DNA from: Chthoniobacterales bacterium
GTDB taxonomy: Bacteria > Verrucomicrobiota > Verrucomicrobiia > Chthoniobacterales > UBA6821
DNA length: 64,000 bases
Assembly (NCBI GenBank): GCA_019747735.1
Contig: JAIEQL010000007.1
Span: 10,456-74,455 of the forward strand
Direction of reading: 5' to 3'
Shown piece after piece: positions 5,614 through 6,549 of this stretch (position 1 is its first letter; each line of letters begins with the position of its first letter). A model generated the notes under the pieces. It saw only the letters and a list, made by a program, of their open reading frames with translations, was not told where the DNA came from and ran no database searches. Made by a program: the position numbers and the translations under genes.

Positions 5614-6549
5614 CTACCGCATGACCTCCAGTGATGGCACTTGGTTCAGCCAAAGCTCAAAGGCAAGAGCCCCTTGATGTAGAAGCATCGATAAACCATT
5701 GCAAGCCCTGGCGCCACCTTGCAATGCGGCTTTCATGAGGGGTGTGTTAGTCGAAGTATAAATCACATCATAAAGAAACTGTTCCTTACGAAAAAAAGAA
5801 GAAGGGATGAGCAGCGGGTCCTCCTCCTTCATGCCAAGGGGCGTGGCGTTGATGATAAGATCAATGTGAGGCATTACCTCAGCGAGTTTTTTTTGTTGAA
5901 GGGATAAGGATTCTATTTTGAGCGAGGGAGAGAGAGTTTGGAGGAGTTCAGGTGGGAAAAAAGCGTGAGGAGAACATGGCGTACGACTTGCTAGATAAAG
6001 AGCCTTGCACCCTTCCAAGGCACATTGGGCCGCAAGAGCACGACCTGTGCCACCATTGGCTCCTAAAATTAAAATGCGCAAAGGGGTCAGTTCCGTTATT
6101 CGGATATTGTGGTGCCACTCTAGGTATTTTTCAGGCTGATCCAAAAATAACCGGACTGACCCAAAAATATCCGAATAACGGAACTGACCCCTTTGGAGTG
6201 CTCTTATAAATCCAGGGCCATCGGTGTTGTGGCCAATAAGTTTTTGGTTGGAAACAACAATCGTATTGATGGAGTCAAGAAGCCGTGCGTGGGGGGTGAC
6301 CTCATCAAGCAGGTCTAGTGCCTTCTGTTTATGAGGCATGGTGAGGTTAATGCCTAAAAAGTTACTCTTTCTTAAAGCTGCTAGTGCCTCGGGAAGCTCT
6401 TGGGTAGTGACTTTGAAGGCCTCATAGCGACAGTTAATCTTGGCTGCTTGCAAGGCTGCATTTTGAAAAAGTGGAGAGAGGGAATGCGCGATCGGATCGC
6501 CGAAGATGCCTAGGCGGATGGGGGGAAGATCATCAATTAAGCCGCTCAT
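5614..6549 (-). CDS. aroE: shikimate dehydrogenase carrying a 39-codon repeat-derived insertion
   Basis: Motifs GDPIAHSLSP, NTDG and LILGANGGTGRA (NADP site). The likely start is M20 of the track ORF (ATG at 6549). Confidence 0.85.
   Translation of the reverse strand: MSGLIDDLPPIRLGIFGDPIAHSLSPLFQNAALQAAKINCRYEAFKVTTQELPEALAALRKSNFLGINLTMPHKQKALDLLDEVTPHARLLDSINTIVVSNQKLIGHNTDGPGFIRALQRGQFRYSDIFGSVRLFLDQPEKYLEWHHNIRITELTPLRILILGANGGTGRALAAQCALEGCKALYLASRTPCSPHAFFPPELLQTLSPSLKIESLSLQQKKLAEVMPHIDLIINATPLGMKEEDPLLIPSSFFRKEQFLYDVIYTSTNTPLMKAALQGGARACNGLSMLLHQGALAFELWLNQVPSLEVMR
6079..6195. repeat. PE-B long form (117 bp) inserted in-frame in aroE
   Basis: Perfect 29-bp terminal IR: caaaggggtcagttccgttattcggatat (6079-6107) pairs with atatccgaataacggaactgacccctttg (6167-6195). 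117 bp equals 39 codons with no stop on the coding strand. Confidence 0.9.

Follow-up and report, generated by a model that had tools for sequence, protein, structure and literature searches.

A palindromic repeat in the shikimate dehydrogenase gene of a Chthoniobacterales bacterium, probably derived from the ends of Y1 transposase units

Bacterial MITEs (Correia/NEMIS, ERIC, RUP, Nezha) are short, non-coding repeats that carry the terminal inverted repeats (TIRs) of an autonomous element and occasionally give rise to in-frame fusions. Transposition by Y1 enzymes is not expected to leave a target-site duplication, and the enzymes of IS200/IS605 elements and the RAYTs act on single-stranded hairpin DNA.

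TIRYTs are tyrosine transposases whose genes, in units called TIRtrons, are flanked by inverted repeats that are not REPs; many of these TIR repeats share the sequence GGGGWSAS and are found singly, in pairs as dimers or in clusters (Di Nocera et al. 2013, PMC3733652). Most TIRYTs belong to TnpA-Y1 subclass 2.1, which is defined by a C-terminal DnaA-like HTH (Bac_DnaA_C / HTH_23 / HTH_28), and for their repeats the consensus GGGG[AT][CG]A[CG] is given (Quentin et al. 2018, PMC6006769). In REPINs, two REPs in inverted orientation enclose a spacer; the whole folds into a hairpin, and its mobilisation is attributed to RAYTs (Bertels & Rainey 2011, PMC3116915). Intragenic REPs of the GTAG/CGTC type are mostly dimers encoding 20–30 aa, and often lie in DNA repair genes; their numbers are highest in the verrucomicrobium Opitutus terrae and in Rickettsia conorii (PMC3733652). 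RPEs are palindromes of 100–150 bp located in-frame in Rickettsia genes (Ogata et al. 2000, 2002, as summarised in PMC10969869 and PMC1779305). In-frame palindromes in housekeeping genes are already known, also from a verrucomicrobium.

The DNA analysed here (the window, meaning the whole stretch of 64 kb) is from the metagenome-assembled genome (MAG) of a Chthoniobacterales bacterium, an uncultured soil-type verrucomicrobium. A palindromic element of 117 bp, placed in-frame in the shikimate dehydrogenase gene aroE by the original prediction, was confirmed at 6079–6195 by the sequence, by the open reading frame and by five identical assemblies, and is a real feature. The locus is composed as follows:

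5614..6549, minus strand: aroE (shikimate dehydrogenase), host of the long element; 311 aa from ATG; Pfam Shikimate_dh_N and SDH_C
6079..6195, no strand: 117-bp long-form palindrome, an inverted dimer of the transposase-end motif with spacer; its minus-strand translation is AroE residues 119–157
6079..6108, plus strand: left arm, a perfect 30-nt inverted repeat; holds AAAGGGGTCAGTTCCGTTATT, a match to the head of the transposase-flanking repeat and the start of the TATT box
6166..6195, minus strand: right arm, exact reverse complement of the left arm 6079..6108
6146..6162, minus strand: a third copy of the repeat head, inside the element; reads GGGTCAGTCCGGTTATT on this strand and is complementary to 6084–6100 at 88%

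The element reads CAAAGGGGTCAGTTCCGTTATTCGGATATT...AATATCCGAATAACGGAACTGACCCCTTTG. Its terminal inverted repeat is perfect and bounds the 117 bp, as had been claimed, and measures 30 bp per arm (6079–6108 / 6166–6195) instead of 29; the interior has diverged, the arms reaching 53 nt each at 85% complementarity around an 11-nt centre. Folding energies were −70.2 kcal/mol (z = −11.9) as RNA and −38.2 kcal/mol (z = −10.8) as DNA, and in both cases 0 of 200 shuffled sequences folded as well. No target-site duplication was found at the junctions, whose flanks (GCGC on the left, GGAG on the right) lack a direct repeat. The Rfam/tRNA scan of the region detected no tRNA, and its sole match was a miRNA hairpin below threshold (21.6 bits vs 43). 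An intein, an intron and translational bypass were ruled out by the open frame, the length of only 117 nt and the lack of a stop at the take-off site; an intrinsic terminator inside aroE was ruled out by the oversized loop, with no T-run flagged, and a CRISPR or tandem array by the presence of a single unit only.

Assembly errors can make palindromes, and Logan contigs break at the short palindrome described below, which would speak for an artefact of assembly or a chimera. The 117 bp, however, show 100% identity across five independent Logan assemblies from different SRA runs (L001–L005), and the insert is carried by the NCBI MAG protein MBX9742229.1 ('MAG: shikimate dehydrogenase [Chthoniobacterales bacterium]', 83-kb contig); the identity of the five assemblies shows that the element is not an assembly artefact, and the probability left to an artefact or chimera is negligible.

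Within aroE, the insert is translated in-frame as the 39 aa QRGQFRYSDIFGSVRLFLDQPEKYLEWHHNIRITELTPL, between NTDGPGFIRAL and RILILGANGGTGRA, in exact agreement with the original prediction; the long form can be read without a stop in only two of its six frames, one of which is that of aroE. A TTG at 6606, upstream of the ATG, is a possible start, and the NCBI annotation is 327 aa long. The insert lies at the inter-domain linker of AroE, between the NTDG motif and the GxGGxG strand, and PDB matches of the protein are split into two segments (query 13–121 and 158–311 vs chain 14–122 and 130–278). Ordinary AroE had been said to possess only a short linker at this place, and alignment with verrucomicrobial orthologues (first 16, then 82; 45–64% identity) bore this out: the insert was present in 0 of 82, and the native linker was 11 aa long in 81 of them and 12 aa in the other one. 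The orthologues in the syntenic contigs L009 (gspD secretin-aroE-purB) and L010 (gspD-aroE) had neither the insert nor any GGGGTCAGT palindrome, and the 39-aa peptide gave no match at E <= 0.001 among 1.84 billion representative proteins. The linker of the L009 orthologue contains GAAGGGGGCCCCTCCTTT. A derivation of the AAAGGGG/CCCCTTT ends from the target was considered and set aside, as the same ends are found at six unrelated sites and in transposase flanks, and L010 is without such sequence.

Where relatives have 11 residues, the AroE of the window has 39, and the palindrome encodes all of them; precise removal of the 117 bp therefore leaves no linker and would fuse ...FIRAL straight onto RILILGANGG. 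Judged from this alignment, the native linker has evidently been lost and the ends of the insert now appear to occupy its place, which amounts to replacement and not to pure addition. The description of the element as inserted is accordingly apt in that a lineage-specific palindrome is read in-frame, but not as a pure insertion, since the native 11 aa are gone. Replacement in one step and insertion followed by deletion are both compatible with the present relatives.

Structure prediction of the insert-bearing AroE, a check proposed with the original prediction, gave a preserved fold with a low-confidence loop in the middle of the insert. The AlphaFold2 model, which was built on the orthologue alignment, had a mean pLDDT of 88.6 and a pTM of 0.86; pLDDT averaged in blocks of 10 residues was 93 (111–120), then 51, 49 and 51 (121–150), and 90 (151–160). 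The first and last residues of the insert are thus modelled confidently at the place of the native linker, and the middle 30 residues form the loop. Against solved shikimate dehydrogenases the model reached target-normalised TM-scores up to 0.90 (Foldseek). The model supports a fold that tolerates the insert, with enzyme activity only predicted, and aroE with the insert is apparently a functional essential gene.

An inactive, decaying aroE, with its function taken over by another gene or provided from the environment, would accord with the displacement of a conserved 11-aa linker beside the cofactor site, and a second aroE elsewhere in the genome is possible. A pseudogene had also been named as the outcome that would speak against the original prediction. 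The ORF, however, is intact, the fold is confidently predicted and the allele is fixed in at least five runs; moreover, the window AroE departs from none of the 29 invariant columns of the 83-sequence alignment, PHK, NTD and the GxGGxG loop included, which argues against a pseudogene. Decay of the gene is highly improbable on these grounds.

The insert might also have been recruited, either as a hairpin that tunes aroE transcription or translation, or as a 39-aa loop beside the NADP-binding strand that modulates the enzyme. The extreme stability of the hairpin (−70 kcal/mol), the arms that are still perfect over 30 bp beside a diverged interior, the identical sequence in five assemblies and the insert ends confidently modelled at the linker position would all fit such a role. 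Yet nothing similar is present in any orthologue, the middle 30 residues have a pLDDT of ∼50, Rfam gave no match above threshold, and the perfect arms may just reflect a recent event. The same repeat is found, moreover, in unrelated proteins and at gene ends (see below), which fits passive tolerance, and we regard recruitment as very unlikely.

Seven occurrences of AAAGGGGTCAG (<=1 mismatch) were counted in the window, against 1.39 expected, and no shuffle reached seven. Six of these sites are the arms of three palindromes, namely the long form and two perfect 50-bp forms, referred to as the short form. The additional features are:

2203..4068, minus strand: mutL, host of a short palindrome, which lies in the linker between the DNA_mis_repair (241–355) and MutL_C (429–568) domains
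2801..2850, no strand: short-form perfect 50-bp palindrome with the same termini; in-frame in mutL, residues ∼407–423, KKGSVPGSRDPGTDPF
43684..43733, no strand: short-form perfect 50-bp palindrome, 92% identical to 2801–2850; between convergent lspA (ends 43665) and the GNAT gene
43693..44253, minus strand: GNAT acetyltransferase gene; its 3' end runs into the palindrome
61417..61473, no strand: weak relative GGGGTCAGGCT...AGCCTGACCCC; arms 76% over 25 nt

A terminal motif common to the aroE element and to palindromes at 2801–2850 and 43683–43734 had been foreseen, and AAAGGGGTCAG does form both ends of the palindromes, which were located at 2801–2850 and 43684–43733. Of the partial sites that had been proposed at 35316 and 61417, the shared GGGGTCAG(G) was recovered; it is all that the sites 35313 and 61417 have in common with the family, the resemblance is weak, and membership of 61417–61473 is doubtful. 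The GNAT gene takes its final ∼13 codons, and its TGA stop, from the palindrome at 43684–43733, which, with A6/T6 on its flanks, looks like a bidirectional terminator. No target-site duplication was found at the short form, the flanks of which (TTTC on the left, CTCT on the right) are without a direct repeat; the lack of such duplications at the palindromes is consistent with Y1 rather than DDE transposition.

Further copies were sought by comparing concatenated frame translations of both forms with a collection of 5.8 billion proteins. AroE was the sole match of the long form. The short form was found in-frame in a PP2C phosphatase and in RibD, in the latter at two sites and in two different frames; the first RibD site may be upstream of the true start. 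The accessions of these short-form-bearing RibD and PP2C proteins (MBX9742972, MBX9743107) belong to a series adjoining that of the AroE product (MBX9742229), which suggests that all three come from the same MAG, and they were therefore treated as such. Dimers thus number three in 64 kb and at least three more in proteins assigned to the same MAG. Two of the three frames of the short form are open, and both are used inside genes; the third has a TGA and was seen only at the 3' end of the GNAT gene. Such a distribution of frames is to be expected if insertion is random and purifying selection acts on the outcome. For the long form a single site was found, with no second copy in the searchable genome, contig and protein data; its only partial relative was a match of 38 nt at 89% in contig L018. 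This contig also bears other repeat motifs present in the window. The original description of a family invading genes holds for the short form, which is multi-copy and repeatedly intragenic, but not for the 117-bp form, which was found once.

Several searches for the family outside the window returned nothing of use. The 19-mer of the long arm gave three chance matches, in unrelated taxa, among 185,579 species-representative genomes, a set in which the source MAG is not included; contig-index look-ups of the RibD, PP2C and 327-aa AroE proteins of the MAG gave no match, and a literature search for the motif string yielded nothing relevant. The scan of JGI metagenome contigs for AAAGGGGTCAGTYCSGKKAT returned 17 loci, none of them a head-to-head dimer. 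Many of the 17 carry a longer motif, AAAGGGGTCAGTCC-nnnn-TATT(T/G)ACAC (AAAGGGGTCAGTCCnnnnTATTKACAC), and in one (L026) two inverted copies of it flank an ORF of 322 aa. The product matches Pfam Y1_Tnp with 46.9 bits (cut-off 23); its best NCBIfam match, REP-associated tyrosine transposase (REP_Tyr_transpos), scored 54 bits, below the cut-off of 80. In another (L024) the motif adjoins a decayed remnant of a transposase gene of the same type.

The flanked transposase family is widespread. Homologues of the L026 protein number more than 7,800 at E <= 1e-20; JGI names many of them 'REP element-mobilizing transposase RayT', and NCBI places some in Verrucomicrobiae or Limisphaerales. Four further homologue contigs were taken, picked solely for being long, and all four have the same inverted repeats, ∼50 nt 5' of the start codon and no more than 25 nt from the stop. 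At all five loci (L026, L030/31, L032-34, L035/36, L037-39), each from other organisms, (GT)AAAGGGGTCAGTCC-nnnn-TATTKACAC lies on either side of the Y1 transposase gene; the variable core of 4–5 nt matches between the left and right ends within each unit, and two of the loci have extra tandem copies of the repeat. Several contigs are barely longer than the unit, from which multi-copy units in those genomes are inferred. H60, H62, Y121, N125 and P126, the residues of HuH and of the class-2 Y---NP signature, do not vary among 38 homologues. The family also has a conserved C-terminal extension of ∼190 aa; the C-terminus gave no Pfam or PDB sequence match to a DnaA-type HTH, and the family had no match in the PDB by sequence or by profile. 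Single repeat units fold weakly (z = −2.6, −1.05, −0.06, 0.0 and +0.25 for the five tested); they behave like terminal inverted repeats and not like REP hairpins.

The arms of the aroE element share the head AAAGGGGTCAGTYC, followed by TATT, with the inverted repeats that flank these Y1 transposase genes in other contigs of Verrucomicrobia type. The palindromes have an identical 14-nt head, AAAGGGGTCAGTCC, in common with both ends of all five transposase units, and the long form matches them over 21–22 nt; GGGGTCAG, which each arm of the long form and of both short forms contains, fits GGGGWSAS. By tblastn no Y1 transposase gene was found in the 64-kb window, and the link between motif and transposase, drawn from sequence comparison, is known from the loci of other organisms. 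The termini that had been assigned to an independent repeat family ('PE-B') are indeed common to the palindromes of the window, but the family is probably no orphan, as its end motif is that of a Y1 transposase TIR.

We interpret the 117-bp segment, with a probability of roughly 0.7, as a non-autonomous hairpin repeat built from the ends of a Y1 (HUH) transposase of RAYT/TIRYT type, similar to a MITE or REPIN. It would consist of two inverted copies and a third, internal copy of the terminal repeat. Such dimers would be spread in trans by a Y1 transposase of this kind, which would act on single-stranded hairpin DNA like the IS200/IS605 and RAYT enzymes, and purifying selection would leave only those copies that keep the frame open at a loop or linker able to tolerate them. 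In aroE, the native 11-aa linker would have been lost, with both ends of the insert now serving as linker. The loss of the linker is not predicted by simple cut-and-paste and counts against this interpretation, as do the 64-kb window without a Y1 gene, the single site of the long form and the lack of head-to-head dimers among the 17 metagenome loci; and the short palindromes are without the inner TATTKACACA box of the transposase-flanking repeats, which makes their mobilisability uncertain.

Two of these points, the missing box of the short form and a linker replacement that suits recombination or repair better than clean transposition, would favour an orphan family of the Rickettsia RPE type. 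Such a family would have no transposase and would spread by recombination, gene conversion or hairpin-templated repair, its resemblance to the transposase ends being due to ancient descent or convergence; the 64-kb window without a transposase and the restriction of the dimer form, as far as seen, to this lineage are in keeping with it. A 14-nt head at both ends of all five units, extended to 21–22 nt for the long form, nevertheless goes beyond convergence, and dimers and clusters are known among the published TIRYT repeats too. An orphan family is therefore unlikely.

The window palindromes combine traits of several described systems: they match REPINs and MITEs in architecture, TIRYT repeats in the head and RPEs in their behaviour inside genes. 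As in TIRtrons, the head GGGGTCAG fits GGGGWSAS / GGGG[AT][CG]A[CG], flanks Y1 transposase genes in inverted orientation (at the loci of other organisms), and belongs to single units that are not hairpins, found as singles, dimers and clusters. Unlike TIR repeats as published, the dimers of the window are perfect or near-perfect palindromes located in-frame inside housekeeping genes, and no cognate transposase gene was found in the 64-kb window. The DnaA-like HTH of subclass 2.1 was not detected by sequence in the transposases flanked by window-type repeats.

With REPINs the elements share two inverted, transposase-associated repeats and a spacer that form one long hairpin (∼70–110 bp), the non-autonomous state and a spacer less conserved than the ends. 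REP units, however, are imperfect palindromes with a GTAG/CGTC head, whereas the units of the window have a (GT)AAAGGGG head and are not hairpins; REPINs, unlike the window palindromes, are overwhelmingly extragenic. As in MITEs, the TIRs match those of an autonomous element and there is no coding capacity of their own; unlike MITEs, there is no target-site duplication, and the presumed parent is a Y1 and not a DDE transposase. Intragenic GTAG/CGTC REPs resemble the window family in that DNA repair genes are hosts (cf. mutL) and some genes are hit twice (cf. ribD), but the window family is without the GTAG/CGTC tag.

Like RPEs, the palindromes of the window lie in-frame in unrelated genes (aroE, mutL, ribD, PP2C) and are predicted to add peptide segments that are compatible with the fold. 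The host belongs to another phylum (Chthoniobacterales), and the likeness is one of behaviour, with no homology claimed. For RPEs no transposase is known, whereas the ends of the window elements match transposase terminal repeats; and unlike RPEs, the aroE insert appears to have replaced a native linker. As the ends of the insert would now act as the linker of AroE, its clean removal would be impossible without damage to the enzyme. In a bolder version of the present interpretation, an end-dimer replaced the conserved 11-aa linker in one event and has become indispensable in an essential enzyme; clean excision would be lethal and the element consequently 'locked in'. We consider this version rather unlikely.

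What is new is a traceable tie between intragenic palindromes and the transposase ends of TIRYT type, together with the replacement of a conserved enzyme linker. The tie joins two subjects that are mostly kept apart, namely protein-coding palindromes of the RPE type, the mobilisation of which is unexplained, and the terminal repeats of TIRYT/RAYT Y1 transposases, the function of which is debated, and translated palindromes that bear a transposase's own end motif offer a testable route of mobilisation for intragenic palindromes. The aroE locus is a natural experiment on the extent to which the inter-domain linker of an enzyme can be rewritten. For annotation, it matters that repeats of this kind make ORFs longer, give rise to false N-termini and interrupt the short-read assemblies of uncultured Verrucomicrobia. 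If the bolder, 'locked-in' version were true and general, dimers of Y1 transposase ends would provide Verrucomicrobia with new protein segments much as RPEs do, but through replacement and not through simple insertion.

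Directly upstream of aroE, the shikimate dehydrogenase gene that hosts the in-frame 117-bp palindrome, lies a second, different set of palindromic repeats (6602-6753), at which two of the five Logan contigs carrying the identical 117 bp (L001 and L002) stop. This set is listed below together with the other repeats of the window.

Repeats in the window, other than those with the terminal motif of the 117-bp element
6602-6753: repeat pair CATCCTCGCGAACGCGAG/CTCGCCTTCGCGAGGATG (94%)
6602-6753: outer repeat pair CGTCATCC.../...GGAATGACG
2080-2167, 13333-13447, 14788-14889, 27990-28029 (both orientations): AGAGTCTGTCCAAATGCTACTGCTGAGGCGCAGAGTGGCGTCGCTG... 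repeat family, 40-88 nt
5461-5600, 20758-20879, 32016-32137, 43181-43210 (direct and inverted): repeats of the AAGTTTGAGT / TCAAACTCAAACT type
30857-31021: palindromic element, 165 bp; arms of 31 nt, 97% complementary; spacer of 103 nt
61383-61509: perfect 15-nt inverted repeat TACCAACGTCATTAA / TTAATGACGTTGGTA surrounding a weak GGGGTCAGGCT...AGCCTGACCCC palindrome

Motifs similar to those at 6602-6753, GTCATTTCCGCGG...CCGGAAT and AGGTAACTGCCAACC, were found in L018, a contig with a partial relative of the 117-bp element; this contig therefore probably derives from a relative. In the syntenic orthologous aroE locus without insert on contig L009, the linker DNA (~8020-8050) reads GAAGGGGGCCCCTCCTTT and resembles the outer ends of the element joined together (AAAGGGG/CCCCTTT). 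This might point to a target preference, or to a microhomology junction; the likeness may also be coincidence, because it was found in this one orthologue only and is absent from L010, which shares the gspD-aroE neighbourhood and likewise has no insert.

The AGAGTCTGTCCAAATGCTACTGCTGAGGCGCAGAGTGGCGTCGCTG... family is probably the other repeat family of the original prediction. Within the type II secretion gene cluster, ORF 12439..13578 coincides in its N-terminal part with one of the copies, and the annotated start of this ORF may therefore lie too far upstream. The AAGTTTGAGT / TCAAACTCAAACT type is a further short dispersed repeat and recurs close to gene ends. Two minus-strand genes, for aconitase (27845..30787) and a peroxiredoxin (31029..31535), flank the 165-bp palindrome, which is intergenic and has no sequence relationship with the GGGGTCAG family, to which the 117-bp element belongs. 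The arrangement at 61383-61509 looks like nested repeats; the 5′ end of the minus-strand ORF 60637..61476 falls within it.

In contigs from other organisms, the repeats flanking Y1 transposase genes contain an inner box, TATT(T/G)ACACA (L026, 1509-1540 and 2525-2552; flanks in L030, L032, L035 and L037), which matches the DnaA-box consensus TTWTNCACA (PMC6006769) at 7/9 positions; for the GGGGWSAS head, no resemblance to DnaA boxes was found (PMC6006769). Subclass 2.1 transposases are reported to carry a C-terminal DnaA-like domain (PMC6006769), for which the inner box could be the binding site. Tandem arrays of three repeat units each (L035, 2470-2540; L037, 841-930; periods 24 nt and ~29 nt) adjoin the transposase genes, in a manner reminiscent of the REP clusters in REPtrons.

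Inside mutL, the short palindrome (2801-2850), a G+C-rich stem of 23 bp between A5 and T5, was flagged on the plus strand by the terminator scan. Attenuation of mutL transcription by this palindrome is possible and might then have mutator consequences.
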